The notes below the pieces were generated by a model. The model saw only the letters and a program-made list of their open reading frames with translations. It did no database searches and was not told where the DNA came from. A program made the translations under genes and the position numbers. This document shows, piece after piece, positions 24,761 through 52,940 of a stretch of DNA of 64,000 nucleotides (position 1 is the stretch's first letter; each line of letters starts with the position of its first letter). Location of the stretch: assembly GCA_973895155.1 (NCBI GenBank), contig OZ316893.1, positions 11,475,660 through 11,539,659 on the forward strand, given 5' to 3'. This stretch comes from Marsupella aquatica. Its lineage: Eukaryota > Plantae > Marchantiophyta.

Positions 24761-26408
24761 CTACTTAATTTCGAGCACTTCGATTTCAAAAACAAGAACA
24801 GAGTTGGGCTGGATCCCCCAGGCCGGAAAACCTGAAGCTCCGTATGCATAATCAGGAGAGCACTGTAGAAAATACAAACAAGGGGTCAGCCGCTCAAGAA
24901 CAACTGCTGGAATACGAAACAAGGGGATAAACCTCAGAACGATCAACTTAATTGCTTCCCAAAAGAGTTCGACAATCCGACCCACACTCAGAAACAAAGT
25001 GCATAAAAGACCGCAAAGCAATCTCGAAGAGCTGTTCCACCACATGCCCTCGATATGAACTTGGGAACTTCATTTGTCAAAGAAAATCCAAACATTTCAA
25101 CTGCAACGGACCCAGCTCTAGCTCAAAGGGTGGAAATAGTCATCACTTTTCCCTGTTTTCAAAAGTGTGGAGTAATTTGAGTCCAGTATGGAAGAACACA
25201 GGAGAAACGTACCTTAAGGCGGGCAACTTCACCAACGTTCATGCCCAAAACTCCCTCGTCCCATCCTGCACAGGCACGTTTGATTAGACTCGTTTCCAAA
25301 AGACAGATTCTACAACAAAACTCTCATAGACCAAATGACCAGTTAAATTTCTTTGGAAGATGGCCGCTTGCAGGACACGGATTTGAAAGCAGAGACTAGA
25401 CTATAAGTTTCCAGCACTCGCTTCCTGTAGACCGTTAACGTCCAGTCCTACTTCGTGACCACCCCAACGAACAGAAGATTCAACACAAAATCCGAGAAGA
25501 AACATGTAACCTATAATGCTTTGCCAATCTCGGAAAGTCATGCTTCTCCCTGACAATCACATCTTAATTAAACCTTCATTTTTGCAGCACATCGTTGTCT
25601 GATGGGCAGGTGCATACCTGCAATAACCTTCTTCCTTCCAATGGTAAACGTGAAGGGCTTCTGACCAGGATCCTTGGTGCTGCAAAGATAAGAAATCTGT
25701 GTAAGCATCAACAAACACACGCCGAAGTAAAGGAGAAACAACCGTCCAGAATGAGAAGCATCGATCCACCTTCTATGCCACAAGTCAGGACGTATGCACA
25801 ACCACAGATCTGACACAATGTGTACTTATAATTGGGTATCACGCATACCTCCAGAATTTCTTGGAGAGGTCTCTGTCCTTTCCTGCACAAGCAAAGTACG
25901 GTTCCGTCAAACCAAACCAAACCACACAGCTCCTCAATATACCCACAACAGTTGCAATGTGGTCAAATTTTGCGGGATCGCCAGCTTCACTTCGTGACAA
26001 CCTGCACCAGAGCTGAGGTCACAGGAGACCGTCCCCACTATCATATCGATCAAACACCTCCTTCACGGGGATCGTGAGAGCCCGACCGCCATCATCAAAG
26101 AGGGCCACCAAAAGAGCAGCTGACGGGCTTTCAAAGAAAGGTCACAATCACAGCGGAAGGCCGGACGTTGATGAAAACTGTTTGGAACATGAGGAAAGGA
26201 TAACGAGATGGATGAGCGAGTTTGTAAGTTCAGAGGCCTATCGAGAGAACAGGAAAGACCCAACAATCAAAAGAGTGAGAGAGAGGTGGAGAACGAAACA
26301 GAGCAATCCTTCACACTCACCGAAGCCAGTGCAGTGGACGGTAACGTCTTGGCCTGGTTGAGGCTTTGGGCCAGTCCCCTCCTGGAGGATTTCCTTCTCG
26401 AATCCCAT
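24761..26408 (-). CDS. FKBP12: Peptidyl-prolyl cis-trans isomerase FKBP12, 5 exons
   Basis: Exon 1 26408-26321, then exons near 25882-25849, 25680-25619, 25266-25214 and 24862-24761, giving [112 protein letters not shown], with the plant-type Cys pair. An in-frame upstream ATG lies at 26555. Confidence 0.96.
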
Positions 26409-29400
26409 GATGTCCAACTGGGTTGCTGCTGGTGGCTTGTTGGGTTCTCGACTATTTCTCGTTCGTCCCGTGGTGGTGGGTGGAGAAGATAGCTGGTACA
26501 CTATACGAAGAATTACAAGGGCAGAGAGGAAGAAAAGGAGCGTCTTTACCTTCATAGCAACGTGTTCTTTGCAATCCTCTCCTCGCTCTCTCTTTCTGGA
26601 CGCAGATTGCAGTTTTAGTGTACTGTAGTAATAGGTTGGCCAAACTCTCACGTGTCATTTCTTTTTTGGAGCAAGAGCCCCTCAATAGTCTTACAACAAC
26701 AACAACAGAGAATTTTTTTGATACAAAGCACAGCCGTAGATCTAGTGAAGATCTGTCTTCTGCAGATGGCCGGCTGAAATGGATGGACGAGATCGCTGGA
26801 TGTAAACTGAAATGGATTGCCAAAATGCAAGACTTTGAATTGAATGGACAATTTGAATGGACAATTTGAAATGGACAGCCAATATCTCAGGGTCTCGGGA
26901 TCTTTTTGGTGGATCCCAAGATCTCACTCAGTATTCCCAAAATTCTCACTTAAGATTCCTTATGCAATTTGTAGCAGCTGTAGATCTTGGAGACTTCTCT
27001 TTTGAGCCCTTTATAGCATGGAATGGTGGAGAGGAGGCACAAGGGCAAGTGAAAATCTGATAGCTCAAGGGAGCCACTGGGATGGTCTGCATCCAAAGGG
27101 GGAGGATCAATACCCAAATGAGAACTCCAGATGAGAGGGAGCCCTCTGGAGCCTCTTATGGGTTTACTAAACTGGTGTGTAATTACAACTCTACCACACT
27201 TTTAATTGTATCTACTGTATTGTCAAAGTTCTGAACTATGGGTTAACCAAGGGCTTATGTGGGTTAGAGTCCATCCTGTAGTAGATACAAGACAGCATTT
27301 GATTTGTTTCTGTCCACCCAGTCCATCGTACTCTCAATGTAGTAGTTTAAACCACCACTAGCCATGACAAAACCTGGATGCAGCAGGTTTCATTAATAGT
27401 ACCATTTTCCTGAAATTGTGGAGCAAAATGGCAAGATAGAGGAGAAAAATGAGTGGAATGTGAAAAAAGGAGAAATCTTGGAAGCTTCCACCTTTTATAT
27501 ATGGCTAGTGCCGGTTTAAAGTAAGAAACCCTCTCCATTTTGAAAATTCATCAAGGTCCACTGAATTGCGCCCATTTGATTGAGGGACTTTGAGGATGAC
27601 ACTATTCAGTGGTGGTCTCTTCAGTCAGCAGTGGCTCTCTGAACATATCACTACAAGGACCCATAAGCAATGTAGCCCAATAGCTAACAAACCCCTACTG
27701 AAACCTAAACTCAAATGCCTGGTAAAGGTCAGGTGTAAACAAACACGGGAGGGTGGCAAAGTGGAAGTTATCTTTGAATGCCATGCCTTCCTTTGAATTG
27801 TGTTCAGCACATGAGCCCTCTGAAGTGCAAGAGATAAATGAACCCTGATCCGAAGGTTTTGACTTCAAATAAATGGCTTCCTCGTCCAATTAAAATGAAT
27901 ACATTTGTATTATTTTTTGAACTTAATCGTGTGACTCGCTGTGTCTTTTTCCTAGAGCGTGTTGGTTTTAAACCAAGGGAAGAATGATATTACTTCTTTT
28001 TTTTTAGCATAAATGTTGAGAAACATGGGTTCCTAGATACAGGTTCTTTGCACTATTTTCAAATGCTATCATAAAATGAATTTGGTTACAATTATTGAAC
28101 CGTACTATAGGGTTTGGACTTGAATAAAGAGCATTGTTATATTTTTGAACTCAAAACGAAGAACCAGAATTGCCATTTTGTTCCCCCGCGAAAAGCCCCA
28201 CGGGAAGAAAATATCAGGGTTCATCTATGCTTTGAAGAGATAAATGAAAACGAAGAACCAGAATTGTTTAGTCTTGTTGAGTATGCTCTCACACAGAGCT
28301 CATTCAAACTTGTTGAAGTTATTCTAGTGCCAATAACCTATATGCATCCAGGACCATAGCCTTTACACGATACCTCAAATGATACTTGTCAAGGTTAAAT
28401 CTGCCCTGCACCATTGACCTTTTAGTTTCTAGTGTAGACAGAAAGAACAAATATTATGCCCATCTTTTGCATAAAATCATCTGAAGTGTGCCTTTTAGAT
28501 TCTAGTGTAGACAAAAAGAATGTGAAAGGGCCCAAACCCGGTAGTAACTTAGTGATGACTTATAATTGCGTATATGAGTAGAAAGCAAGTAGGTGTACCA
28601 AAAGTGTTTGGTTTTCAGAATTTTTAATTTTTGTTAGTTCTAAAAAATTGATGCGACAACTGGAGGCCGGAGTAGAGAGGGGTGTCGAGCGGTGATGGAT
28701 GACAAGGGAACCATTGAGGGGGTAAAAGGAGGCCACAAGGCAGCCCAAGGACTTGGAGCCAAGGTGTGGGCATCTTGGAGGGGTGGGGGCTGGTTGGAGG
28801 CTCCACGTAAGGCGCAAAACGGGAAGAATGACCAAAATATAGAAAATGTTGAAACTTAGAACAGACGTTGCTGCGCTAGTACTATTCTAAACATGGTCAT
28901 GTTTGGATTCATTTTGAAGCCCTCAATGAGCCCCATGCGAAACTGAGGTTCTCTAGTTGAGTTTAGGTCTATATCAAACAGTGACATCTCGAGGGACCTC
29001 AACACCCGTAAAACGACAAACTAGACAATCTTGGAGTAGTGATGGTGGGAGGGCCCTTAGAAGAAAGGGGTTCCCACACTTGTGTTCCCCTTCACCTTTT
29101 GTGTGGTCCTCACATGTTTTTTTTTGCTCTCTTTCCCTTCCCCATCGTAGAAGGGCCACCGTAGAAGGGGCCCTCGCACTTTCTTCTTTCCCTTTTTCTC
29201 TATTCTCACTTGTGGGGTTTCCATCCATACCTAAACCCTAAACCTTTTCCTTCTTGTGCTTGCTTTCAATGTGTGTACGGACCCTGGTTGTACGAACATC
29301 CGATTTTTTACCATCTCAAAATCAAGAGTCTATGGGCTTGTTGGAAAGAGCTCGCCGAGCTGAATCCAACGATGTGTCACACGGCCGAAACGGAGCTAAG

Positions 29401-29783
29401 ACGGGGGAGATACGACAAATCACATTTTTTGACAATACGAGGGCTTTGGGGCCGTACGGACGTCCGTACGGAAGGAGGTCCCGGCTTTGCAAGGGAAGGA
29501 AGAGGTAGTAGCACATACGGGGAAACCGTGATCCGTGTTTTGCAAAGTCGGGGGAAACGTGTTGTACGGACGAAACGAAGGGAGACGGTGCCCCGTAAAA
29601 ACTTAAACGATCATATCTTGGCCGTTTGACATTCGTTTTGTGCACAGTTTATGGAGCCGTGAACAGGAAGATGAGGGCTCCTTAGATATGTTTTCAGAAG
29701 TGAATTCTGAGAAAATTTTAGTTTCGACAATTATAGGGGCCCCCTCCTTTTACAACGAACCGGTGGTGGCGAACAGGAGGATC

Positions 29784-29947
29784 GGGGCTCAAGCCAAGGC
29801 ACCGTGAGTGAGGAGGAGGAAGACTGATGAGGAGACCAACTCACGGGGCTCAAGTCAGGGCACCGTGAGTGAGGAGGAGGAGGACTGATGAGGAGACCAA
29901 CTCACGGGGCTCAAGCCATGGCACCGTGAGTGAGGAGGAGGAGGACT
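29784..29947. repeat. Tandem repeat, 61-bp unit x ~2.7
   Basis: ggggctcaagcc(a)..gcaccgtgagtgaggaggagga.gactgatgaggagaccaactcac starting at 29784, 29845 and 29906. Confidence 0.9.
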
Positions 29948-31941: not shown

Positions 31942-32002
31942 CCCGGTATTCTCGATATTCGGTTTTCAAGACCGACTCTTTCAACCGCTCAGACATCCAT
32001 CC
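31942..32002 (-). pseudogene. trnS: 3'-truncated mitochondrial-type tRNA-Ser(UGA) fragment (NUMT)
   Basis: Minus strand reads GGATGGATGTCTGAGCGGTTGAAAGAGTCGGTCTTGAAAACCGAA...AATACCGGG, matching the 5' part of plant mitochondrial trnS-UGA as I recall it; the T-loop and acceptor 3' strand are missing. Confidence 0.8.
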
Positions 32003-32225
32003 CTTTCGTAATAAGCTCTTGAGCTTGAAGCAAACAATAAGAAACCTAATATTCAATTACTATGTAAATTAAAGTTCAGAGAATACACAAAAAAAAAAAA
32101 ATTGTTTGGCTAGACTCGTAGAGCTCGACCCAAACTCGAAGGGGCCAAAGCACGGAGTACGCGACCCGAGTGGGCCCGAAGGCTAGAAATGGCTTGACGA
32201 TTTCTGCCCACGAGCACCAGAAGGA

Positions 32226-32271
32226 CGGCCTTTGATGCCGGGAAACAAAGGTTCGAATCCTTTTACTCCAG
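32226..32271 (+). pseudogene. trnQ: 5'-truncated mitochondrial-type tRNA-Gln(UUG) fragment (NUMT)
   Basis: CGGCCTTTGATGCCG (anticodon arm, TTG) followed by AAAGGTTCGAATCCTTTTACTCCAG, the T-arm/acceptor 3' end typical of plant mitochondrial trnQ; the 5' half is absent. Confidence 0.75.
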
Positions 32272-33269
32272 GCCGCCCCCCCATTTGGCGAAAGCAGAAA
32301 GAAATATTTTTTCTTGGTCGAAGGCCCATGGGGCATAAGGCCAGGCTGGTCGCGACACTAAGGGAAACCGCCAAACGGAAACGGCGATATCTTCCCAACG
32401 AAAGTCCGTTAGAGTACTTCTTGGGTGCGTTGGAAAGCTCTCAAGCAAGGCTACGCCTTCCTGAGCTCATCTGGGTCTGGGGGCACCATGGGTTCTCGGG
32501 GTTTGCGGGTGTTATCTCGTCCGCTTGCCAAATCCTGCCGAACAATAGTCAAGCCGTGTTCAATCTCCCAAGGGAGCTTGCGTTGGGGAAGCAAGGCCAA
32601 GTAGGTGTGGAGGTTGAGTTCTAAGAGTGTTCGGTCCCTAGACCATTAGTGAGGCAAATCGGGAGTTGGTTGCTAGAGTCGGGGCCATTCTGGTATCGAC
32701 GTGTTGGGACAAGCTTTAGAACAAGCTACGCTATTTGGGCCATGAGCATGTCCTGGGGTCAGGACGGTCAGTTGGTGATGGATAGGTACGAGGGGGAACC
32801 CGGACCGCGCCCAAGGAAGGAGTTGTTTTGGACAAACTGTGGGCATGGGTTCTAGTTCCGGCTTATGGCATCGGGAAGACCTATCGCTAACCTATTTAAT
32901 TACCAATGTCTGTTGAGCTTGAGTTAGGATGCTAGACTTGGCGAGTTCTAGATCCTGAAGGGTTACTTATCGAGGTGCTTGCATTGGTTGCTTGTGCAGA
33001 CAATGAGGACCGTTGAGTAGCGGTCGTGTTGGAGAGCAAGTGCGGCTTTGTATGGGAGGGGCCGCTAGCAGTGCAAGGGGCACTAGGGTGCTTGCTTGAG
33101 GTATTCCGTGGAGGCGTTCGGGCACCAGGGGCACTTAGGCGTGAGTGTTGGGATTGGTGAGGGTGCTGGGTGGCAAGGTCCACCACTTGGGACTTGACAA
33201 AGCAGTTAATGGTAAGCTTGGGGTTCAGATTGCATACAGATGGGACTGGAAAGAGTAGTACATGCAAAG

Positions 33270-34178
33270 ACTTGGGTTGGACTTCTCAATTCTTTTATTT
33301 TCCAGCATCCATTTCTTCATGGAGTTATATTGAAGTGGTTTTCCTCATTAGAGTTACACTAAAGTGGCTGAAACCAGACGAGTCTACCAGAACTTTGATT
33401 CAAGTTCAGGGAGTTATTCTTTGACATCTATACCAAGTGTTCAATACCTAGGTGAGACTGTGTTTAGGCCTTCTGGAGGTGCTTTCTCCAAAATTACCCC
33501 GAGTTCATAACATGACAAACTTAGCTCTAGATGAGTAGAGGCCAACTTTGTACAACAAGAGAGGAGGAAATAACTCTCTTGGCAATAATTTATGGGTTAA
33601 GCAACACTGCATATTTTGACCACTTGTGGGAATCATCCTCTCCATTTTGGTACTAGTCTCCTCCTGCCTTTCTCGTCCTCCATCTTCTCTTAGATGAAAT
33701 CAATTACATACAAGTTGGGCTTGAAGGAGTAGCAAGTGTAAGACTACCTCTGTGGCATACCCATTTTGATTGTAGATTTATTACTCATGGTCAGACGGGT
33801 AGTCCTGGAAAGATGGTAATCAAAGTGGTCCTTCAAGATTTCCATACCCATGTATTACTTGGGGAAAAACAATAGGATCAGTTTGCAAGGTACGCAATGT
33901 ACACTACTAATTTGCTATAAGCTCTAGTGCAAAGATAGCATTCCGTGATTTTCTCAAGGAAACAGGTTTCGAGAAAATTGGAAAAAGAGCGGGTAGGAAA
34001 GAAGCCTGCACAACTCTTCTACCATGATTTACAGTACAATGTTCAAAGTAAGGCGAATTTCTCTAGAGAAAAGGTAAAAAATTTCCTAGAATCAGAATTA
34101 CTACAAAATTGACAGACTAGCAAAAAACCAAATTAGCCATACTCAAATGAATCTCCCGTACTTGTGCATCTGATTCCA
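33270..34178. repeat. Diverged direct duplicate of the MGD1 3' flank (other copy ~41470-42098)
   Basis: Collinear matches, e.g. ccagcatccattt...agagttacactaaagtggctgaaaccaga, gtagtcctggaaagatggtaatcaaag and gaatctccc...cttgtgcatctgattcca; this copy is interrupted by a 333-bp insertion. Confidence 0.92.
33461..33793. mobile_element. Probable solo LTR (TG...CA, 5-bp TSD)
   Basis: Insertion starts tgttt and ends ggtca, flanked by gactg / gacgg; the paralogous empty site near 41714 carries gactg once (ttg-gactg-gtagtcc). Confidence 0.6.
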
Positions 34179-36169: not shown

Positions 36170-36335
36170 ATGATATGAGTGTCTCTGCAAAGAGAGTGGA
36201 TCCAAATTGGAGAAAGGCGCAGGTGGCGACGAAGGGGAAAAAGGCAGAGGACATCGTGGACAAGAAGAAAAGAGAGTGGATTCCAAATTGGAGGAAGGTG
36301 CAGGTGGCGAAGGAGGGGGAAAAGCAAAGGTCATG
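36170..36335. repeat. Purine-rich direct repeat, ~80 bp x2
   Basis: agagagtggat(t)ccaaattggag.aagg.gcaggtggcga occurs twice. Confidence 0.75.
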
Positions 36336-37073: not shown

Positions 37074-38071
37074 GAGATATATGCTTGATGGGCCCCCTGG
37101 TGAACCTTTCTTACCTGATGGGCCCCTAGGGAACTTTTTTTACCAAGTAGGACCCCTCTTAATGATCAGTACACATGTTCTTGTGTGGTGCCTACACCTG
37201 TCCTTGTGTGGTGCCTACTATGTATGGTGACTCCAAGCAAACTGCATAGTTGAACCGTGCGGTCAACCTTGCATGGTCGACCGAGAAACCACGGAGATGA
37301 TTTGGGAGAAACCGCGAAAAGCGATTGCCGCTGCCGAATCTGCGATTTGAAGACAATATGCATTATGTCTTCGGATTCACTGGGTTAATGCCTGAAGACA
37401 CAATGGATTATGTCTTCGGGTTCAAATTTTTACCGTATCGTGGGGTAGTTATTAGGTATGTTTTTCATGTTGCGCACATGGGTTTTTCACGATGTTTTCA
37501 TGCACGACTGTCAGTGTCAGTGTGGGGTACCTCCAAATGTCCACAAAGAATATTCAAGTTCAATGTTCGGAATTTGCCTACTGCCGCCACAACAAAAATT
37601 GGCAAATGATTGACAAATGCGCTCAAAAAATGGTAATACTCCCCTATGTAATGCATACAAACAATTTCCAAAGAAGACAGACCCAAAGGTGTCGGGTACA
37701 CCCTAAACCCTAAACCTTGAAACACGGGAAAACATAATCCATTGAGTCTTCAGGCATTAACCCATTGAATCCGAAGACATAATGCATATTGTCTTCAAAT
37801 CATAGTTTCGACAGCGGCAGTCGCTTTTCGCGGTTTCTCCCGAATCATCTCCGTGGTTTCTCGGTCGACCATGCAAGGTTGACTGCACGGTTCAACTGTG
37901 CAGTTTGCTTGGAGTCACCATACATAGTAGGCACCACACAAGGACAAGTGTAGGCACCACACAAGAACAGGTGTACTGGTCATTAAGAGGGGTCCTACTT
38001 GGTAAAAAAAGTTCCCTAGGGGCCCATCAGGTAAGAAAGGTTCACCAGGGGGCCCATCAAGCATATATCTC
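37074..38071. mobile_element. Non-autonomous Mutator-like (MULE) element, 998 bp, with 340-bp TIRs
   Basis: 37074-37413 is the near-perfect reverse complement of 37732-38071 (ends GAGATATATGC...GCATATATCTC); flanked by a 9-bp TSD AGATAAAGG (37065-37073, 38072-38080). No transposase. Confidence 0.92.
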
Positions 38072-38350
38072 AGATAAAGGTCATTGGGAATTGAGTGTGA
38101 GTCTACATGTGGTTATCATGGGTAGATGGGTCTGACAAGAAAATCTAAGTAGACCCCACATGATTGCCCCATTCACTTAAAGTAAAAAGTATAGACAAAG
38201 TATATTACAAATTAAGTTGCGAGTTCAAAAGGAGTGATTTATAGGAAAAGTGAAAAAAAAGTCTACTAGGAGTAGATAAAAAAAAGTTTTTTTCTAATCT
38301 CTAAAAAGTATTTTTTCCAAGTTATAATAACATTCAATCCTAAATTCTTT

Positions 38351-39199: not shown

Positions 39200-40973
39200 T
39201 CTTCTTCTTTTTCTTAATCATGTTGGAAGGGGGAGGGAGGGTGCCAAAGAGCCAGGATAGGAGACTGGAAGGAGAGAAAGGTAGGGCACATTAGAGGAGA
39301 TTGAAGAGAAAAAGGAAAAAAAGTGAGTTTCTTTCCCTCCATGTAGCAGAGGGCGACCACACTTGACCCCGTAACACCCCAGCCGCCGCCCCATCTTGAG
39401 TTCACTCCCATGCTCTCACCCTCGCCCACAACATTGCTTCACAATAGCACCTTGGGACATGCTTTGCCTCAACATCTTTGCCTCGACTCGACAATTTTTC
39501 TCGTCTTCACATATTTTTTGTCTTCTTGGCATTATCTCCTCAGCAACTTTTATCATATTGACATGTTTTCTCTTCTCCTTGACATCCTTTTTCTCACCTC
39601 AATGTTCTTTTCAATCTCACGTCGACATATTTTTCTCACCTCGACATCTTTCCTCTCCATTTCACCTTTCCTCTCCTCAACATCTTTTATCACCTCAACA
39701 TCATTTTCTCACCTTGATAAATTTTCTCTTCTTGACATATTTTGTCCTTGGCATCTTTTACTCAGCTCAACATCATATTCTCATTTTCACATATTTTCTA
39801 TCATGGACATGATTTCCTCACTTTAATATCATTTTCTCACCTTGACATTTTTCTCTCATTAACGTTTTTCTCACCTCAACATCTTTTTCTCTCCTTGACA
39901 TCTCTTCCTCACCTCAACATCTTTTTCTCACCTAACATCTTCTGTGCAACGCACGGGCATTGGGCTATATATATTGTGCCAAAATTAACATGAGATTTTC
40001 ACACCCATAAACTATGACAAATATTACTATGGGTTTTCACCACAATTGTCTTACAAAAATTGACTTTTATCATCCTTGGAAGCAAATCAAAGAGGGGAAG
40101 AGGCAAGGAGAAAGGGGAAGGGGGGCACATGGATGGGAAAAGAGGGAGGGAGAGGCTTCATCTTGTCCCTTCCGGCCACGGGTAAGGGTGGAAAAAGTGT
40201 CAAGTTTATTTTCTCACCTCAAAATCTGTTGCTCTACTTTACATATTTTTCTTCTCAAAATCTTTTTCTCCCCTTTGCACACGTTTCTCTCCTCAACATC
40301 ATTTGTTCACCTAGACATATTTTTGCTCCTCAAATTTTTTCTCATCTCAACATCTATTTCTCTCCTCAACATCTTTTCTCTCCTGGACATATGATTCTCA
40401 CTTCAAGGACATCTTTTCTCTCTTTGACATCTTTTTCTCTCCTTGACTTCTCTCTCCTGGACATATGATTCTCACTTCAAGGACATTTGTTCTCTCTTTG
40501 ACATCTTTTTCTCTCCTCGACTTCTTTTATCACCTCGACATCTTTTCCTCACCTTGACATCTTTTCTCACCTTGACATCTTTTCGCTCCTTGATATCTTT
40601 TATCACCTTGACATCTTTTCTCTCCTCGATATCTTCTATCACCTTGACATCTTTTCTCTCCTGGATATTTTCGATCTATCACCTTGACATTTTTTCTTTC
40701 CTCGACATCTTTTATTACCTCGACAGATTTTCTCTCCTCGACATCTTTTATCACCTCGACATCTTTTCTGTCCTTGACATTTTTTTGCTCCTTGACATCT
40801 TTTATCACCTTGACATCTTTTATCTCCTCGACATCTTTTATCTCCTCGACATCTTCTATCACCTCGACATCTTTTGCTCACCTCAACAGTTTTTCTCTCC
40901 TCGACATCTTTTATCACCTCAACATCTTTTCTCTCCTCTACATCTTTCGTGCAACGCACAGGCATTGGGCTAG
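39200..40973 (+). mobile_element. Non-autonomous Helitron remnant with CT-rich minisatellites (5' boundary uncertain)
   Basis: Helitron-type 3' end: hairpin cgtgcaacgcac(a)g + gcattggg + CTAG|T at 40948-40974; a second degenerate end (gtgcaacgcacgggcattgggctat) at ~39943-39968. Confidence 0.7.
40205..40946. repeat. Minisatellite, ~18-20-bp unit (tcacctcgacatcttttc); a more degenerate array lies at ~39460-39941
   Basis: Dozens of cct(c/t)gacatctttt variants; explains the repetitive LDIF/RCQGD ORFs in the track. Confidence 0.92.
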
Positions 40974-42166
40974 TCATACATGAATGATTACTAGAGAAAT
41001 ACATAGACCTGGCTGAGCACCTATTTAGGGTCTGTTATCTCAGTCAAGTCCTTGCTTAAGTGTTACAGTGAGTAATTGAGAGTGTGCAAGCTATTCTCCC
41101 AACCTTTCTTGCATTGCTCTGGGAAGCGACATCTTTCGTATGCTTTCTAGAGTTACGCCTACTGGATTCAAGGCATTTCGTTGTGCTTGATATGACCATT
41201 GGTCACATACAACTTTGGACTACTTTAGCGTCGTCAGTCGAGCCTACTTTCGCCCTGGTAGTTTGTAGTGTAAAATGCGCGTGAGCTGTGTGGTAGAGAG
41301 TTTTCGACCTTCATCATGACGGATTGGTTTGATATGGTCTCTTCAGCAGCACACCTGTTATCTACTTATTAGTAGTGGAAGGTATGGACAGTGCAAGTTC
41401 TTTGAAGCTTACCTTACGTACAATTGCACAATCTGGTGCAGTGGAGGTTCGGTCTGTGGTGGAACAAAATTTGGGTTGAACTTCTTGATTCTTTACTTTC
41501 CAGCATCCATTTCCTCATGGAGTTATGTTATTGAAGTGGTTTTCCTCGTTAGAGTTACACTAAAGTGGCTGAAACCAGATGAGATGAGTCTACCTGAACT
41601 TTGATTCAAGTTCAGGGTGAGCTATTCTTTGACATCTACACGAATTCAAGTTCAGGGTGAGTTATTCTTTGACACCTACACAAACTCGCGGGTGTTCAAT
41701 ACCTAGGTGAATTGGACTGGTAGTCCTGGAAAGATGGTAATCAAAGGGGTCCTTCAAGCTGTCCATACCCATGTATTACTTGGGAAAAAACAATAGAATC
41801 AGTTCGCAAGATCTGCAAAACCACCTTTTGATGTACACTACTAATTGTCTATAAGCTCTAGTGCAAAGATAGCATTCCATGATTTTCTCAAGGAAACAAG
41901 TGTCAAGAAAATTGGAACAGGAAAGAAGCCTGCACGGCTCCTCTACCACGATTTACGGTACAATGTTCAAAGGCGGATCTTTGTGGAGAAAAGGTAAAAA
42001 ACTCCCTGGAATCAGAATTACTACAAATTTGACAAACTAGCAAAAAACCAATTTAGCCATACTCGAATGAATCTCCCGGACTTGTGCATCTGATTCCAGA
42101 AGTGATGTATGAAGCTATTGAATATATCTCTGCTTAAGACCCTGTGTTCCACCGGAGTGTTCCCAA

Positions 42167-45100
42167 TTACACATATGCAAATTTGCGTTCATCCAAAGTC
42201 TTCCGAGTTCGTGCCAATTCATCGATGTCATGGACAATTTTGAAAACAGCATCTGGTCGTCCCAGCTTGGCTGCATTTTGGGCCATTTCCTTGAACTCCG
42301 CAGCCTTTGGACCAAACCAATCAGCTACAATGGAAGCAATCTCTTGGGGCTTCTCACAGAATTTTCCTGCAGCATTCTCAACCACAAATGATACGTTTCC
42401 CACTTCCTGCATGTCAACCAAAGTCTATTCAGTTCCATAACTCGGTATTGCCAACCAAATTGGTTGGTCTCTGGCAAGTAAATTGTTTCATTTTATGGTA
42501 CTTGCTTCAAAACTAGAGCAGGATGTTCAAGTATACTGAAAGCAGCCACAGCAATCAGAGTACATATCTCGGGATGCCCATGCAACACAATTTAAGCTAG
42601 AAGTAAGTTCGTGAATTACCTGGCCGGCAATGTAGCTATTTAATATCATTGGTAACCCGCAGATCATGGCCTCAGCTATTGTTCCTGGTCCAGCCTGCAT
42701 CCAAACAGTTACTCAATGCCGATGCTCGTACTTATAATTACTTAATTCCATCTCCAGCAAGACTTATCCATACATTCGCAATATTGGACTACACGCATTT
42801 GGGTATATGCACGAAACCAAAGAGACCATTTAGAAAGAATATTTTAACTGCTCCACAATGACAGATTCTTAAGATACGTCTTAACAGAGTAAAATTCTTT
42901 ACTACGTGAAGGTTTAGCCCTGCTTTCCCCCAAAAAATCCAACAAAACAAATAAGCTCATGCTTGAATTTCGCATCAACGGGGCGCCACATCAATAGTGC
43001 CCTAGTTTTTTTAATCTGTAAAAAGGCAGAAATCTGATTGTACTTGAGATATTCAGGACGTGGAATTTTTCCGGTACCTTGGTTATAACACAATCACATG
43101 CCCCCATCCAGTCAGGCATGTTGGTCACAAACCCCTGAATCTGTTTAATGGACAAGATTCCAACCTTTGGCCATCAGTAAGATATTCATTAACAATTTGG
43201 AGAACCTTATTATCCATTTCTGAGTCTGTCCTACAACTACAAACAAGCGCACATAAACCGTAACCCACTAAACCCAAAAGGGCCACGGGAATCGAGAGAC
43301 AACCAGCAGACAAGGTCTGTGAAGCATCGTAAACAACTAGCACAAGGGGTGAGGATTTAAAGCAGGGATACCTTTACAGGTACAGTCCAATCAAAGGACT
43401 CCAGCTTGCTGACCAGCTTCTTGTTTCGCCCACAAATGACTACAAGCTGGCCTATGGGTTTTTTCGAGTCCTGATCGTATAGTGACTCCAGAAGAGCATG
43501 AGCGGTTGTCTCCACTGGACCCATTCCTTCCCCACCTCCCATAAGAAGAACCGCCGGCAGATCATCTACTAGTCCCAGTTCCTTCCGCAGCTGAGCCTGA
43601 CAAGTGGCAAAAGTGCTAAAATGCTCTCAGTTGCACATACTAATTAAAAAGTAATATTTCAGGAACAACCAAGTTATTTGGCGAGGAGAACAGTGGTCCG
43701 AGGTTCTTTTCAGAAGTTTCCAGACGAAAACACGGGGATCTGGTTCTCCTGAGGCTCTCGACACACTGGTAGGACACCTGCATGATGTTATCTATCTTCC
43801 ACCAGTTCTACGAGCAAAATCAAATTTTTGCGCCACAGAGGAAATTAATGCTCTGAATTAGGGCATAGTTTGTTTAATCTATACAATGGCTGCCTCTTTC
43901 CTTGAATTGATATTAAAAGCAACAAACGTAAATTCAGAGCATCTAATGCACAACTGTATAAGCATATCATCACATTGGAGTCGGCTTTCCTAGTCATAAT
44001 AGTCATAGTCACTCACACAAAGGGTTCCAAGGTTACGTAAGTCGACGAAGGGCCTGGATAGTCCCAATCCTCAGTACGTGCCATCTGAAACGACTAGTAA
44101 ACATCAATTCCAAAACGGAGCTATTTTACCTGAGAACGAAGAGACTGACTGAAGCCAGGTCTTATCGGTAGACCGTATACACGCAGCTGTGATGGACGTA
44201 AGCCAGCCTTGAGAGCGCGTCGCTCCACATCTTTGGTTGGACAGAAACATCTTGTGACTGATCTATGAAACCTGCGGGTGTCGCTTACAAAACGTACGGC
44301 TTTAGCAAGTATCGATGCCTTCTCATAGATAGAACATGTAACAACTGGACGGTACCAAACACTGCACAAAGATACTACAGACAGCTGCTACAATATGCAC
44401 CGGATAGTAGAAAAAGGTGAAAACACCATACCATGTGGGATGACAAGTACTGAGATCAGTGATAACGGTGGTGAAGGGAATCTTGCCCAAAAGTCCTTTT
44501 GCCCTTAATATTCGCAAGGGAACATGTTGCATAAGTGGATGTACGCTCACAATAACATCCGGTTGGTACTTCAGCAGCCCCTTAGTCACCTCTCTGACTT
44601 CCCATCAGCATTCCCACCAACTCAGGGTGTAAAAATTCAGTCCCAGAACATTACCGATTTAGCAACTGGAAACAAAAAAAGCAAGTACAGATCCCGTTTT
44701 TCCTCCACATCCTAGCTCAGACATGAGAAATGTCAACCTTTGAAACCGTCAGTTCCCCATTAGTGGACGAGAAATATTTATCATAGTCTTGAACAAATCT
44801 CAAACACAAGCCCGTCCAGGATGGTAGTACCGGGCAATGAAAGTCGACGTGGCAGCCATCTGAGACTGATGAATGAAGCGTGGGGCTGTGCTATGGTATG
44901 CAAGTTTCCAGAGCGCCTCATGCTTGACCATAAAACTGTATGTTTTTGGCACTTGATTGAACGGCCATGGGGTGTAGTCTTGCCATAAGTCGATGATAGT
45001 CACCTGAATCCCCAACAAGCGGCCAATATACCATAATCACTTCAGCTACAGTGGTGCATATTCGATCCGTCATTACATCGTACCAGAGGAAGCGTGGTGT

Positions 45101-46673
45101 ACTACTGTTCTTAGTTCCCGCTCTGGATTCATGCACAAACTATGAACAGATTGAGCCAGTAGATCAATAAACACCACTTCAAAAGGGAATCTGAGAACTC
45201 TATCTGCCATTCTCTATCAGTAAGGAGACAACCAAGTGAAATGGGAGTTTGCTCCCGAGGGATCCCCATTCGTGCTCTACAATTTTCTAATATAGGCAGA
45301 AGGATTGCCAATATCGTAGCAGAAGAGGAAGGACAAAAGATAGGGTAGGGCAGCAGCCCAACATGACGTAAAGAGACTTGAAATTCCGAAGCGGAAAAGG
45401 AATTCGAAACCCTTAAAAAATATACCGAATCCTACATGAAACAATTTCTGGACAACGGATCAGAAGAGTTACGACCGAAGTTGCAGTTTTCTTAGATTGA
45501 AACAGAGAAGACTTCAGAAAGAATGGACGTCATTTGAAAGCTCTTCACATGTTTCAAAAAACGAGCCTGAAGATCGGGAAGCAGAGACATAAATAATTCA
45601 TCACGAATTTAACAGACCAGCAACCGCTTTGCTTTGGTTGACCTTTAGGGCTAACACCTTAGCGAGAGAATGGGACAGAGTAATCACTCGCCTTATACTC
45701 GTCACCGAACTCGAGTTCGAAGGTCGCTTTTATAGCCTCAGCAGATGCACGATGCCCCCCACCAGTGTCACTCATTAGAATGAGAACTTTTTTGAACCTC
45801 CGCGGTTCCAGTTGTAAGGCTCCATCATCCTCCGTCACAAGACCTCCGTTTTCAAAATTTTGGCCCCTACTAATATCGTCCCTACCAAGCAAGGCTCCAC
45901 CAAATGGGACTCCTCCCAAAGGCACCCGTTCGGTTCCTCGTTTGATCAACCTATTTACCGTCTCTAAAAGCCTGGCTTGCCTGCTCCTTGCCCCTTCTAA
46001 CCCAGCTGTTACTGAAGCAGCAACGAGACACTTTTGCCCACCTAAAATCCCAATCTGCTTGCTCTTCCTCCCGCATGGATTCATAAGATTCGCCCGCCTG
46101 ATGCTAGAGCCATCTATCCACAACAAAAGCCCACGCGTGCGTTTAGCGGAGATGTTACTGAAGAGATGTCTACATAGAAGTAGACATTGCGTGATACGCC
46201 CAGCTAGAGCTCCCAAAATTACACGGTTAGCTATAATTACAGCTCGCCAACAATGGCCCGTGCAGTCAGGCCTTTACAATGCAACCAACAAAATTTGTAA
46301 CGACAGTAATGCATTATGCACAGAAGCCCTGAAGACGACCCATGCAAAAACCAGCGGGAGGGAGACATCTGAATGTGAATTGCCCGCAACAAAAGGTCCA
46401 AAGTTTCTCAACCCATCGATCTCGCTGCAGCTGCCATTAAAGCACAACGACTATTTCGGATACAAGAGAGCATAAAAGCACGAGGGAATCAAAGAAGGAA
46501 CGATTTTACACATAAGGTCCCACACAGAGCGAGGAGGAAGAAAGTAAAAACAGAAATGGAGACAAAAGCAGAGAAAATGCCTCACCGAAACCACCAGGAA
46601 GGACTGTAGCGACTGGGCCTAGGCAAGGCTTAGGGCCAGTGCCCTCCTTAAGGATCTCCTGCTCGAATCCCAT
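42167..46673 (-). CDS. MGD1: Monogalactosyldiacylglycerol synthase (type A, MGD1-like; GT28)
   Basis: [109 protein letters not shown]. Approximate exons: 46113-45692, 45003-44831, 44593-44432, 44271-44130, 43596-43372, 43140-43078, 42694-42620, 42406-42167. The start is uncertain: either the FKBP12-like exon 46673-46586 or the internal ATG at 46084. Confidence 0.93.
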
Positions 46674-46947
46674 GACGTTTACCAATTCGAGATGGGCACT
46701 TGCGGCAATCGGCTATTTCTCCTTCCTCCCTTGGGCCACGACAGCTGCTACGATTTCCGAAGAAAACGTCATCCCAACAACGCAAGATGGCACCCGAGAG
46801 CCAGAGGCCATGGCGTTGTATCGTCTAGCAGACGCTCTTCACTTCCATTTCAGACCCACAGTAGATCGATCCCTTCTCTCCTTTCTCGCTCTCTCGGGTC
46901 CTGCAGCTCCTGATCTGGAGATTACAAGTCAGAGCAACATTCAAACC
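46344..46947 (-). other. FKBP12-derived 5' cassette, copy 1 (leader + 88-nt exon 46673-46586 + intron start)
   Basis: Exon encodes [30 protein letters not shown] (19 of 29 residues identical to FKBP12 exon 1) and ends G|gtgag; collinear with 52345-52940. Confidence 0.9.
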
Positions 46948-47389
46948 TTCTCCCTACTCCTTTGTCCGGTTGGGTGGAGGTTGGGATAGCGTGGACCACG
47001 TCAGCGGATTTCCATTTGGCTGATTGTGAGAAAACTCCAACTGCGGCACTGCAGGTACTGCCGTACTGTACTATACACAGCGTCCCAGGCTTGGCATTGT
47101 TAACCACGGTATGACACTACAGTAGTGCTGACTTACGGTAGCCTAAACAGTACAGCAGGAGTGATTTACAGTAGCCTAAGCTGAAACACCAGTGCGTTAC
47201 AGCAGCCCCTTTATGAAGAAGAAGGAGAATGATACGTGAGTCAACATTATTTTAACTCCAAAGGAGCCAAAACCCATCCATTTGACACCCGAGTGGCCAA
47301 AACCCAAAAGGACACGAGAAGATAAGTTGGCTAGACCGGCGAAGAGGCAAAGAAAACGAAAGGAAGGAACGGAAGGTGACCACCGCACA

Positions 47390-47428
47390 GAGGAGAAGAG
47401 AGGAGGAGAGGAGAGGAGAGGAGAGGAG
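47390..47428. repeat. (GAGGA)n microsatellite in a 5' leader
   Basis: Directly visible pentamer run just before the ATG at 47440. Confidence 0.85.
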
Positions 47429-47439
47429 ACGCAGCAGCT

Positions 47440-48003
47440 ATGGCGTCGTGTTCAGCAGCAGCAACGATGCCGAGCGCGCAGACGAGTGGACGCAGCTTCA
47501 GCGGATTGAGGTCGGTGTGCCCATCCCGCAAAACTGCTTTAGAAAATGTGTCGTTCGTCAAACACCTCAGAAGCAACAACAGCAACAGCAGCCAAAGGAT
47601 ATTTGCCGAACCTCCAGACGGGAAACCAACAAGTCCCTTCACTCAAGTTGGATCGTCTAAGCCAACGGCTCCACCAAATCCTTTCAGGAAAGCTCCTTTA
47701 ATTCCGGCTGATTGGGAGAAAGCAGGAGCTAGACCAGCAGGTTCAGGGAAGAGAGTATTGGATGCTTTCAAGGAAGGAGAGAAGACGGGCACCACAACCA
47801 AGTTCGGGCAACCTATGGTACCTAAGAATATATTTGATGAAGTGAGGCGAACACCAGAGGAAATTGCCGCGGATGCCTTCAAGTTTGAGATAAGTCCTGG
47901 GCAGGTCTTCTTGGCTGGTTCATTTCTGGTAGTTATAGCGATTATGTTTGGCACCGTTTTCCTCGTATGGAAAGTGGGTGCCATACACTTCAATGAATAC
48001 TAG
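47440..48003 (+). CDS. Uncharacterised plastid-targeted protein with C-terminal TM helix (187 aa, single exon)
   Basis: Transit-peptide-like start MASCSAAATMPSAQTSGRSFSGLR; TM VFLAGSFLVVIAIMFGTVFLVW; C-terminus KVGAIHFNEY*. Confidence 0.8.
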   Translation: MASCSAAATMPSAQTSGRSFSGLRSVCPSRKTALENVSFVKHLRSNNSNSSQRIFAEPPDGKPTSPFTQVGSSKPTAPPNPFRKAPLIPADWEKAGARPAGSGKRVLDAFKEGEKTGTTTKFGQPMVPKNIFDEVRRTPEEIAADAFKFEISPGQVFLAGSFLVVIAIMFGTVFLVWKVGAIHFNEY

Positions 48004-50959
48004 GTCTTTTTGCTATTCCTCTAGTCGGCTATGAGGGAGGATAGTAATACCCATGTACATATAAACGAGTCGCTGGTTCTATCTTGCTCTCAATATTAAT
48101 GAGTCGCTCCTTCTATCTTGCTCTCTGGTCTAATTGTGTACATCGCAAGCATGGCAATCCAATTTTGTGAAAGCAGACGAGTCTGCACATCTTTGATCTG
48201 ATCAGTGATACGGACTTCTATCTGTTGATTCTCTGCTTGGTTTGGACTGTTCCTTGTCGTCAATTGCCGTCTTCGCATCGCTGATGTGTGTCCATCATAA
48301 TTTTGAGAGGACATGATCCCCCCAGTCACCAGGAGAGTTGCTCGTGTAATTCAAATTCATGATCTCGTACATCCACGAACTTGCAGAATTTACACTCCGG
48401 AATATAGTTACCATCTTCAAAGGTTCAAAGTGGACAGTACTCCGGACCTGCCTCCTCTGTGCGCAGACGATTCCGCACAAACTGCGCCTTGGCTCTTAGA
48501 GTAGAAAAAATTTTCACAACTAATTCAGATTCCTTATTTGGGGTTGAGTTATGTAGGCAATAGTAGGAGCTGAGAATGATCAAACCAGTTCTCGATGAAA
48601 TATTTACTTTTACAGAAACACAGTGTTCTACTCTACTTTGAATCTGAGAGTGATCTTTGGGCAACCTACTAGAGCGCTGGTAGCTTCACATTCACGATCT
48701 GATGACAAAAATGTATGCATGAAAGACGTCATCCATTCCTAAAAGCTAGGAAAAACGACCGGTCTCAAGGAGAATAGCAGAACAATATCTTGGTCCAAGA
48801 TTTGAGGTTTAAGTGCCTTACGACAGCCCCTGATTATTCATGTAACAAAAAAAGAGCAGAGATATGGACGAGTAAATATCATGTGCCAGCCTTCCAGCGC
48901 TCTGAAAGAGTGAGAAAACGTGTGCTAGGAAATCATGGGGGATGGGTAACAAAGTCCCCGGCAGTACTAATGACAAGATCAATTCTGAGCAATTGCTAAT
49001 TTCCTTGGTTTACTGGGAGAATAATTACCTTGAAATGATTGTGCTACCGTTCGAGTGCAAGTTCTGCTGACCGGGTCAAGCTCCCCATTGCTACGTGACT
49101 CATGGCTTATGGGAGATCAGAATCACGATCTTCTGACGGACATTATAATCGATGCACTTTCTATGCCTGTCGAAGCAAATTGTTTCTCTTTGTACACGGC
49201 AGTGCTTTCCTTCATCGTGGCGATCACTGTCCTTCTCGATGAGAAACATGAACTCTACGGATCCAGTCCTATGCCTCCTTTGGATTTCTCAGACGAGCAC
49301 CGCATTTTGATTCGGCAAACAAGCCAGGCAATTTCGGCTACAGAGCACGATGATATCAGCCATGACTTCCAGTTGTCCAACACTGATGACGGGAGGCACC
49401 AGAAGTTCGGAAATGGGCAAAGACCCACAAATCTTGTTGGCACTGAATATATCAGGGAAGATAACCGCGAGGCTGCAGATCCAGAACAGGCACGACATTA
49501 TTAGCAAATACCCGTTCAAATCGTCCTAGGTCTTGCTCATGAAGTGCAGGGGTGGTGAAAACCAATATCTTGGGAGGCCCTTGTTTAGAAAGAGTTGTCA
49601 TGCTCATTCTCTTTGGAGTTCTTTCTGCTCTTCCAGGTGGTGACACATTCCCTAAGTAAGCTTTCAAAATAGTCAAAATACTTTGGAGAGAGGGCCATGT
49701 GATGAAGGATACATTTTTGCGACAGCCCCGATGCAATTCAATGAAGACATTTTTAGGTTGGCAATTTTGATCATTTTGGTTCGTTGATAATGCTTCTTGC
49801 GTATTGCGCAAGGATAGATGCTGGAGTGGTCTTTTCACGTTGTGCTATTGGTGGAGTGCATTTGATGAGTCTTCGGGATCGCTGCTAGTCCAAGGTGATA
49901 CTAACGTTCATGAGGGATTGCCGCTAGTCCAGGGTGACCCAATATCGACTTTCACTTTGATGTCTCGGTAAGATTATGCATTCCAAAGCCTCAAGTACCT
50001 GGAGGCCACTAGCACTTTTGTGATCATTTAGTTCTGTTCTGTAAATTTCAATTCTTATTGTTCTCTGATTTGGTTGAGTTTTGTGTTCATTCTTTGTAGT
50101 TTGTATGTTTGTTAAATTGATGGTAGAACAGACACAAATGTGTTGGCCAGGCCTAGAACTAGAGATACAATGGCACAGTAGGGATTAGAGTGGAAGAGTT
50201 CACAAATTCCTGACTCGGAAATGGTTGTCATTATCACTGAAGTACAACAGAAAGTAGCCTCTTGCTCACCTCACCTCCCAATGATTGAGGCTCTCTCAAT
50301 GTGGGTAATCAGATTACAGATGGGATCGGCCGACTACATGGCTGAGACTTCAACTTGGGACAAGAGCTTTTTCCCTAAGCCACAAAATGAACAAATTTAC
50401 AGCCAAAACTTCCAGATTGGTCCCATATTTGATTCAGTAACCTCCGTCCATTTTCTCTGCTCATAGAAGTAAGAATTTATCCAGTCATTACGACTACAAT
50501 TTCTTTTGAAGATACGTATCAGAAACTATTGGTAAACGAAGTCCTGTTGCGCCCAGAAGATACCTCGTTACTGCTGTTCAGCAGCTTCAAGATGCCCATT
50601 TCCGCGCTCGTTGCTGCTCTTCAGCAGCTTTTTCAAGATGCCCATTCCGCGCTCTTTGCTACTGTTCAGCAACTTACTCAAGTATGCCCATTTCCGAACT
50701 ACATCGACTACAACTTTGCCTAGGGAGCATTTGGTCTTCAAGCTTTCAAGAGGTGGACATGTATTCCTGCAAGCCCCTATATCTGCAAACGTAGATATTG
50801 GGGGGCGAACCTGATAATTCAATTAGTTTTGGGGCAGGTTAGTATTTTTTACTATTTTGGGGGACAGGATAGTAAAAAACGGTTCCAAGATGTAGCCAAC
50901 ATGGCACTCAGCTTAGGAACCAGATTCGTTCTCTTTCTCTTCCTCTTACCACTCACCTA

Positions 50960-52681
50960 CTATTGGGCTTCAGCACGGGGCTTTCGTCTCTTCCTCTTGT
51001 GTTTGGCATTTTCTGAAACAGTGAGGCCCTTGTCCTTCAAACTCTTCAGCTTCAAATCTTTGCGGGCTTTCACTTTGTCCTCAAATCCACTATCGAGCAT
51101 TTTCAATGAAGCAACCCGCTTTGCCTTGTAGACCTTAGTGATGCCTTTCAAGACGGCATCCTCTTCCGTTTCATATTCGTCCAATTTCTTCCCAATGGCA
51201 GACTCGATCCTTTGAATAAGCTCCACATCATACTGGGTTACCAGACTCACAGCCAAACCTCCTCTTCCAGCCCGAGCAGTTCGTCCTACACGGTGAATGT
51301 AGTCCCGAGCAAGTCTCGGAAGATCATAATTTATGACCAGATCAACTGTCGGAATGTCAAGACCTCTGCTTGCCACATCAGTGGCAATCAGAATAGGCAC
51401 TTGCCCAGCTTTGAATCGATTCAGTGACATCAACCGCTGCTGTTGCAGTTTCATCGAATGCAGTGCAGTGGTTTCTATCTCCAGCTCTTCCATAATAAGA
51501 CTCAACAAGTGGCAGGTCCGGCAACTGGCAGCAAATATAATGACAGAACGTATAGAGAGCTCCTCCAGACTGGACAACAGATGCAGAAGATAGACGTCTT
51601 TCGCATTCGCTGGCATAAACATGTACTGCTGTTTCAAGGACGCCACTGTGGTGGACTTCTCATTACCCTGATAGAAAAATGGCTTATCCTTCCCAAGAGA
51701 CAGATCTTGCACAACTTTCAGGCTACTTGTCATGGTTGCAGAAAACAGAAGGGTTTGGCGCTTGGCCGGAAGGCTCTGCAGCACGGTCCGCATCTCACCT
51801 TCAAACCCCGCGTCCAGAAGCCGATCCGCCTCATCGAGAACGAGAAACCTAGTGTTGGAGAAGTACCCTGCCATGTCCTTATCATTGATGAGATGGTCTT
51901 TGATCCGGCCAGGAGTGGCAATCACAACATGAGGCCTGCTCATCAAAGCCTGAGCCTGAGTCGTCATGTCCATCCCTCCCACTGCCACCACACACCGCAG
52001 GCTCATCGTCGAGCCCAGCGCTTTAAATTGGTCCGAGATTTGGAATGCCAGCTCGCGTGTGGGAGTCATGACGAGAGCGAAGATGCCATAAGGGTCCTCC
52101 GCCAGCTTCTGCAGGATTGGAAGAGCGAACGCAGCGGTCTTTCCGCTCCCTGTCTCCGCCAACCCTAACACATCCTTCCCTTGCAACACCTGAGGAATGC
52201 ACTGCCGCTGAATGGGAGTCGGCTTCGCCATCCCGAGCTCCCTACACGTCTTGTGCAGCCATGGCGATAACCCTAAATTGGCAAACGAAACTCCTCCTCC
52301 TCTATCGCCATCGCCATCATCGCCATCGACTCCTTCTCGAACCAGCAAAAACCAGCGGAAGTGAGAAATCTGACTGTGAATAGCCCGCAACAGAAGGTCG
52401 GACGTTTCTCAACCATCGATCTCGCTGAAGGTGCCATTAAAGGACGACGACTACTTCGGATACATACAAGAGTGCATGAAAGCATGAATGAGAGAATTAA
52501 CGTATGAGTGATTTTACACATAACGCCCCACAAAGACGGAGCAGGACGAAAGTAAAAGCCAAACCAGAGAAAAAAGCAAAGAAAATGCCTCACCAAAACC
52601 ACCAGAATGGAGGGTAGCGACTGGGCCTGGGCGAGGCTTAGGGCTAGTGCTCTCTTCGAGGATCACCTGCTCGAATCCCAT
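50960..52681 (-). CDS. RH36: DEAD-box ATP-dependent RNA helicase 36 (DDX49/Dbp8 family)
   Basis: Q motif GMAKPTPIQ, AETGSGKT, PTRELA, TPGR, DEAD, SAT, ASRGLDIP, HRVGRTAR and the RH36-type tail KAKRVASLKMLDSGFEDKVK; the body 50960-52335 is uninterrupted. There is no in-frame ATG before the conserved FANLGL, so the start is placed tentatively in the FKBP12-like exon 52681-52594. Confidence 0.93.
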
Positions 52682-52940
52682 GATGTCCACCATTTCGAGA
52701 TGGGCACTTCCGATAATCGGCTATTCCTCGTTCCTCGCTTCGGCCACCATAGCTGCTACGATTTCTGAAGAAAACGTCATACCAACAACGCAAGATGGCA
52801 CACGACAGCCAGAGTCCCTGGATTTGTACCGTCAAGCAGACTCTTCTCACTTCCGTTTGTGAATTTACAGCAAATCGGTCCCCGTCTCTCCTCTCTCTCA
52901 CTCTTTCACATCCTGCAGCTCCTGCTTTGGAGATTACAAA
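52345..52940 (-). other. FKBP12-derived 5' cassette, copy 2 (leader + 88-nt exon 52681-52594 + intron start)
   Basis: Exon encodes MGFEQVILEESTSPKPRPGPVATLHSGGF/G (17 of 29 residues identical to FKBP12 exon 1) and ends G|gtgag; the leader shares ggacatcATGGGATTCGAG with FKBP12. Confidence 0.9.

Follow-up and report, generated by a model that had tools for sequence, protein, structure and literature searches.

Several plant genes are described as having taken their start from an unrelated gene. The cases collected in PMC2631504 include rice rps11, with sequence from atp2, Arabidopsis sdh3, from hsp70, carrot rps10, from hsp22, and rice rpl27, with a promoter gained by recombination; exon shuffling in cytochrome c1 (Long et al. 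1996) is cited in PMC7456531. According to PMC3673630, 14 of 28 new genes on the short arm of rice chromosome 3 are chimeric through DNA-level duplication, and changes of gene 5' ends driven by Pack-MULE transposons are described in PMC5861414 and PMC8277862. Here we analysed a stretch of 64,000 nucleotides (nt) from the liverwort Marsupella aquatica (assembly GCA_973895155.1, contig OZ316893.1, forward-strand positions 11,475,660 to 11,539,659), called the window below and numbered from its first letter. In it, the monogalactosyldiacylglycerol (MGDG) synthase gene MGD1 begins with an exon from the immunophilin gene FKBP12, and a copy of the MGD1 front end is joined to the helicase gene RH36.

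The locus resembles the targeting-peptide transfers in that DNA recombination, together with an intron joint, turns a 5' piece from an unrelated gene into the start of another. In those transfers, however, the recipient had no front end and in most cases acquired a targeting peptide that was ready-made, whereas MGD1 was a resident gene with its own extension that acquired its front from a cytosolic-type immunophilin and, in our reading, passed it to a second gene. The young rice chimeras were likewise built by local DNA duplication and recombination that gave them a chimeric 5' structure. They are extra, recent copies, whereas we saw no unmodified MGD1 or RH36 here and the MGD1 chimera is common to Calypogeia. 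Pack-MULEs also capture GC-rich 5' gene ends and set them at the 5' ends of other genes, but at the RH36 copy no terminal repeats or target duplication were found and the copy number is three. With respect to type A and type B MGDG synthases, the catalytic part is that of an ordinary MGD in the liverwort clade, and the foreign front makes up 29 residues of a type A transit region of ~100 residues, which is not shortened to ~30 as in type B. Exon shuffling itself is known; unusual here are the re-heading of resident core genes, the non-targeting donor peptide and the second pass-on. No FKBP12-MGDG synthase chimera in liverworts was found in a literature search that covered few subscription journals. 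We regard a relay as the probable history, in which the FKBP12 exon went to MGD1 and the MGD1 5' end later went to RH36.

The FKBP12-derived first exon of MGD1

MGD1 makes the main thylakoid lipid. In the window this gene is headed by an exon from the unrelated FKBP12, and the same chimera is present in Calypogeia. The original prediction had described three minus-strand exons (26408-26321, 46673-46586 and 52681-52594; Table 1), each measuring 88 nt from the ATG to a G/gtgag donor and each an open frame free of insertions and deletions, and all of this was confirmed. BLAST of the exon copies within the window gave E values of 3e-14 and 2e-16. The FKBP12 exon differs from either copy at 22 of 88 positions, and the MGD1 copy differs from the RH36 copy at 13 of 88. 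The substitutions said to be common to both copies were also found: 15 sites group the MGD1 and RH36 copies against FKBP12, compared with six for each of the other two groupings. The proposal of one capture from FKBP12 and a later second duplication is supported. Furthermore, as had been noted, the VHCTG residues are absent from both derived exons and no downstream FKBP exons accompany the copies; FKBP12 exons 2-5 and their introns occur nowhere else in the window. The recipients hold only 29 of the 112 FKBP12 residues, and the Pfam FKBP family had no match on the exon peptides or on P0123, an MGD protein of Calypogeia fissa.

Joining 46586 to 46113 yields an open frame for an MGDG synthase of 529 residues in nine exons. 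This junction was examined in run X1, which represents a relative (organism A) that differs from the window by 7% in MGD1 exon 2 and by 6% in RH36. Contig 2 of X1, whose exon 2 is 93% identical, lacks precisely 46585-46114, an interval with GT-AG ends; it extends for 226 nt on the side of exon 1, and its letters past the joint, translated by hand, read in frame. Although the RNA nature of X1 was a guess from the tool, all eight MGD1 introns are skipped, and X1 is therefore taken to be spliced RNA. Intron 2 of MGD1 (45691), skipped like the others, has a GC donor.

The proteins nearest to MGD1 and RH36 of the window come from C. fissa (Jungermanniales in the NCBI taxonomy), with 92% identity over the MGD core and 88% over the RH36 frame, and the window was accordingly treated as DNA of a leafy liverwort. 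Both C. fissa MGD proteins, P0123 (92% identical to the window MGD1; Pfam PF06925 and PF04101) and P0246, begin with the FKBP12-derived peptide. Their first residues are identical to those of the window MGD1 at 14 of 16 positions, and the next methionine is residue 145, inside the catalytic domain. The spliced X1 contig and the two C. fissa proteins thus support the claim that the FKBP12-derived exon gives MGD1 its start codon and N-terminal peptide. Such a start was seen in 2 of 122 MGD proteins (the best 120 of 695 matches plus two cluster members), both from C. fissa, and in 0 of 124 RH36 proteins (the best 120 of 7905 matches plus four members). The MGD proteins of Marchantia and Riccia and the record P0124 do not have the peptide; we conclude that the exon is derived, not ancestral, in MGD1. 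P0124 falls in the same clade as the window and Calypogeia MGD (support 100/99), with the fork unresolved. Two points count against this argument: the C. fissa proteins are gene models, and P0124 is a single record in that fork. Residues 1-48 of P0123, compared with proteins of 292-930 amino acids in a weak search for further recipients, found only P0123 itself among nine candidates.

MGD1 is presumably a single gene in M. aquatica, and a single MGD gene is given for Marchantia in PMC10550880. Run X1 contains a second MGD-like contig, about 84% alike. More generally, X1 has second, more distant contigs on 41500-54500 for MGD (~84%), RH36 (~82%) and FKBP12, which are either paralogues or come from a second liverwort in the sample.

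Table 1. Features of the FKBP12, MGD1 and RH36 genes in the window
Feature	Positions	Strand	Remarks
FKBP12, intact donor gene	24761..26408	minus	5 exons, 112 aa, GT-AG introns; named from translation and an earlier label
FKBP12 exon 1, source of the moved exon	26321..26408	minus	88 nt, phase-1 donor
FKBP12 leader stretch aligning with the MGD1 leader (46764-46709)	26448..26512	minus	0/1000 shuffles
MGD1 exons 2-9, MGDG synthase	42165..46113	minus	529 aa including exon 1; 8/8 introns as joints in X1
FKBP12-derived exon 1 of MGD1	46586..46673	minus	gives ATG and 29 codons
32-codon upstream open reading frame in the MGD1 leader	46713..46811	minus	first ~15 codons likely the old MGD1 start; ends at TAG in the FKBP12-like leader
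43-nt element upstream of MGD1, at the outer end of the copied piece	46905..46947	minus	sequence comparison
RH36 (DDX49/DBP8-type DEAD-box helicase)	50960..52335	minus	one exon, intact frame; the usual ~40-50 codons of the N-terminus are missing
MGD1 5' end, copied (its upstream DNA, leader and exon 1 and ~250 nt from the start of intron 1)	52338..52939	minus	82% identical, joined to RH36 coding DNA
Second-hand FKBP12-derived exon before RH36, predicted exon 1	52594..52681	minus	exon comparison, predicted splicing
Partial copies of the 43-nt MGD1 element in tandem (five matches)	52894..53377	minus	sequence comparison

A copy of the MGD1 front end at RH36

Beyond the exon, the MGD1 and RH36 copies share a match of ~600 nt and 82% identity (46336-46927 with 52338-52939), which within the window is restricted to these two. 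It places about 270 nt of MGD1 DNA from above the ATG in front of RH36 (83% identical). A single X2 contig of 5535 nt crosses the junction at about 52338 without differences, and contigs of X4 and X5 cross it as well. All sampled words are present in X2, which may be the source sample and is thus not independent; X4 and X5 carry another label and belong to another study. Since the junction is found within DNA contigs of all three, the copies are not an assembly artefact. Nor are they part of a high-copy repeat: the eight X2 contigs on 52000-53380 (filtered contigs, at 80% likeness) contain three copies of the exon. No second RH36 was seen among these eight filtered contigs.

The RH36 proteins of C. 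fissa, Marchantia and Riccia have an ordinary N-terminus. A tblastn search with the C. fissa and Marchantia N-termini did not find the old RH36 start in the window. In X1, the RH36 contig departs from the window at 52310; what follows resembles the ordinary extension and includes the AG-rich word now found at 52335, and by depth arithmetic no X1 RH36 contig lies on the copied exon. In the comparison with relatives that had been proposed, MGD1 is chimeric in both C. fissa and organism A and RH36 is ordinary in both. Judged from these sequences, the copying to RH36 is later than the capture by MGD1, as the start of RH36 is still the ordinary one in Calypogeia and organism A.

In each of X4 and X5 the tandem region 52882-53326 is present in two versions, which differ by substitutions and gaps of 8-17 nt and represent either alleles or mixed plants. 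In the copied leader (52693, 52780 and 52750) the ATG matching 46811 has been lost, one upstream ATG is still common to MGD1 and RH36, and others have been gained, one of them 12 nt above the main ATG and in the same frame.

In this second step, which would fall after or near the split from organism A, ~600 nt of the MGD1 5' end and the tandem element copies would have joined RH36 at about 52338, most likely through template switching during repair or replication between neighbours 6 kb apart. The five tandem copies of the 43-nt element, with no terminal inverted repeats (TIRs) or target site duplications (TSDs), would fit template switching between neighbours. On the other hand, a search of the copy borders for TIRs and TSDs found none (the longest matches were 6 nt, direct, and 9 nt, inverted), and with just 3-4 nt of possible microhomology the mechanism of copying can only be inferred, which is a weakness of our proposal. 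An AG inside the old RH36 coding sequence (at 52335, 52332 or 52329) is predicted to be the new acceptor, and the copy would likely give RH36 its promoter, start codon and first exon.

There is a modest chance that a transposon of the Pack-MULE or Helitron type, with decayed ends, was the vehicle or, for RH36, that a 5'-truncated retrocopy came to lie in a duplicated MGD1 intron. Such an alternative would change only the vehicle and leave the relay as it is. At a distance of 9 kb there is a MULE-like element that has 344-nt arms and a 9-bp target duplication, a piece of the MGD1 3' flank has also been copied nearby, and insertion of MULEs near gene 5' ends is described in PMC5861414, but the RH36 copy has no TIR or TSD and only three copies exist. 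A retrocopy would agree with the lack of an intron in RH36 here; no A-run directly follows the stop, and no parent RH36 was seen among the X2 contigs.

Returning to the relay, we consider that the copied exon probably serves as the start of RH36. The first in-frame ATG of RH36 itself, at 52231, lies below an F..LG motif that is found in 113 of 122 relatives and is intact and in frame here; a start at 52231 would cut this motif off, which counts for use of the copy. Three candidate acceptors, at 52335, 52332 and 52329, are all in frame, and the ATG, donor and frame of the exon copy have survived 15% divergence. The RH36 frame is intact. On the window branch, where the two X1 contigs have the same letter and the window another, 30 changes are listed, of which 22 are synonymous and 8 are replacements (ratio of nonsynonymous to synonymous substitution, dN/dS, about 0.12). 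The MGD1 and RH36 copies are ~16% apart, that is ~8% each, which is close to the silent change of 7% or more on the window branch, so that much of the selection on RH36 would, on this rough reckoning, have acted after the capture. A transcript start of RH36 within the copy, and shared expression of MGD1 and RH36, are predicted.

A less likely reading is that the copy is a mere passenger, with RH36 starting at 52231 or at a non-ATG codon, or recently silenced while a working copy exists elsewhere. A number of results speak for this and against use of the copy. The splice from 52594 to 52335 is predicted from DNA alone. No constraint was seen on the RH36 exon copy, which diverges from the MGD1 exon by 0.148, compared with 0.169 and 0.161 in the flanks, and has a ratio of replacement to silent differences per site (pN/pS) of 0.78 on 13 changes; its first 16 residues have drifted to 11/16 identical with FKBP12, and the chance of an exon free of insertions and deletions is 0.25. 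The 22:8 count also spans time before the capture. The RH36 acceptors are weak: the useful in-frame ones read GAG, AAG and GAG, compared with CAG or TAG in 12 of 12 other modelled acceptors, and the best-looking in-frame TAG, at 52272, would lose the conserved F. The ATG at 52231 has a G at both -3 and +4. Against a passenger, however, stand the F..LG motif, five out-of-frame ATGs just above 52231, the 22 synonymous to 8 replacement changes, the intact ATG, donor and frame of the copy and, weakly because the contigs were filtered, the lack of a second RH36 in X2.

The leader and promoter of MGD1, and other features

The original prediction had extended the FKBP12 homology into both the leader and intron 1. 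For the leader this holds, as 0/1000 and 1/1000 shuffles reached the score. For intron 1 it does not (129/300 and 106/300 shuffles): the intron-1 word that had been pointed out is present, yet the best alignments between FKBP12 and the copies are at chance level. Upward of the exon, the likeness to FKBP12 ends ~105 nt above the ATG, and from -600 to -151 it is at chance level, with 31/300 and 24/300 shuffles matching the score.

The MGD1 leader contains an upstream open reading frame (ORF) that begins at 46811, in frame with exon 1 and 138 nt above it. Its first 11 residues align ungapped with P0124, with 6/11 identical. Among 243 fetched N-termini it matched P0124 best and a Marchantia paleacea MGD second, and among 1236 ORF starts in the window 46811 scored best against P0124 at length 11 (p 0.005 by shuffling). 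It is from codon 16-17 of the ORF onward that the leader resembles FKBP12. These findings suggest that the FKBP12 piece was likely inserted into the first exon of MGD1 and left the old start behind as an upstream ORF. Two points speak against this interpretation: at length 15, five of the 1236 ORF starts match P0124, and the match consists of 6/11 residues that were first spotted by eye, at a length that was one of four tried.

In the first step, before the Calypogeia split, FKBP12 leader, exon 1 and donor (the leader part ~105 nt) would accordingly have entered the first exon of MGD1 about 15 codons below its old ATG. A stop in the FKBP12 leader would have severed the old start, which became an upstream ORF, and the FKBP12 ATG would have become the MGD1 start, with a phase-1 donor that splices in frame to exon 2, as seen in the relative. 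The new 29 residues would have replaced the front of the MGD1 transit peptide, the first 16 apparently kept by selection, and MGD1 would likely have retained its own promoter.

The promoter of MGD1 is likely its own, because the upstream ORF is matched by the beginning of a liverwort MGD1 that is not chimeric. The X1 MGD1 contig reaches 46811, and the RNA would therefore extend above the FKBP12-like part. It had been proposed that a portable FKBP12 promoter and first exon put three pathways under related, FKBP12-like control. We consider this very unlikely: the leader likeness to about -105 may take in the FKBP12 start-site region, older upstream likeness may have decayed (silent divergence, pS, is already 0.40) and a loose end of the X1 FKBP12 contigs resembles the MGD1/RH36 leader just above the ATG (a mixed consensus, agreement 0.62), but -600 to -151 is no better than chance, the likely old MGD1 start and the end of the X1 contig lie above the FKBP12 piece, and the region is common to a head-to-head gene starting at 47440. 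Related regulation of three pathways therefore shrinks to the predicted link between MGD1 and RH36. The element is not portable either, as there are three copies only, TIRs and TSDs were not found and the two events are of unequal age.

The head-to-head gene (47440-48003, plus strand) is intronless, has 187 codons and shares its upstream DNA with MGD1. Its protein has a transit-peptide-like start and a hydrophobic C-terminal stretch and gave no match in Pfam; an X1 contig covers the gene. A scan of the upstream regions for TATA, telo-box and site II motifs found nothing shared.

The MULE-like element lies at 37074-38071; its 344-nt inverted arms are 96% complementary and it is flanked by the 9-bp direct repeat AGATAAAGG. 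About 630 nt of the MGD1 3' untranslated region and flank (41471-42098) is copied 8 kb off at 33272-34178, at 84-87% identity and split by an insertion; this is a second local duplication from the MGD1 locus. A degenerate array of 18-19 nt units occupies 39400-40970. Two stretches, 31960-32000 and 32185-32275, resemble decayed organelle-type tRNA genes, and ARAGORN and Rfam scans gave 0 matches. Divergent from RH36, and about 3 kb from it, is a multi-exon gene (55800-59640, plus strand) that we take to encode a mitochondrial carrier. An intronless frame of 374 codons (5036-6160, plus strand) presumably encodes a mitochondrial EF-Ts, in which case intronless housekeeping genes occur in this window.

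The FKBP12-derived peptide and its implications

In codons 2-16, FKBP12 and MGD1 differ at 2 of 35 replacement sites and 4 of 10 silent sites (pN 0.06, pS 0.40), and in codons 17-29 at about 12 of 28 replacement sites and 4 of 11 silent sites (pN 0.41, pS 0.41). Fisher tests gave p 0.016 within codons 2-16 and 0.0006 between the two parts, with small numbers and a split at residue 16 that was chosen after inspection. On these comparisons MGD1 seems to be under constraint in its first 16 codons from FKBP12. The comparison with C. fissa weighs against this, as 14/16 of the first residues are kept compared with 37/57 in the rest of the extension, at p 0.07. Recent gene conversion by FKBP12 was considered as a cause of the conserved 16 codons and is not favoured, given pS of 0.40 and 0.41 in the two parts, on few sites.

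Within the first ten residues of MGD1, three are acidic and none is Ser or Thr. Of the other MGDs, 0/119 have three acidic residues there and 3/119 are likewise free of Ser and Thr. The length of the MGD1 extension is typical, with the motif at 144 compared with a median of 145. Transit peptides are characterized as uncharged at the front in PMC7456531, and PMC5809773 gives a cleavable peptide of about 100 residues for type A MGD1 and calls the question of the inner-envelope face on which MGD1 acts still debated. For RH36, the title of a study cited in PMC11350083 reports that AtRH36 is indispensable to the development of the female gametophyte.

As a speculation that we hold to be rather improbable, the 16 residues may have been kept for a new job, as an acidic, Ser/Thr-poor cap that would redirect or split the envelope location of an MGDG synthase that is likely the sole one in these leafy liverworts, and cap and MGD1 promoter would together tie RH36 to thylakoid lipid synthesis. 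If this were so, a single gene would give leafy liverworts something like the type A/type B division of seed plants.

Within 27 kb, the two steps of a serial replacement of 5' ends can be seen together with a likely fossil start codon, and since a relative has the first step and not the second, their order and mechanism are open to test. For leafy liverworts, the chimera would serve as a clade marker of a rare kind. An MGD1 with an acidic FKBP12 front, kept in two liverwort lineages, is also a natural test of what MGD1 needs for import.

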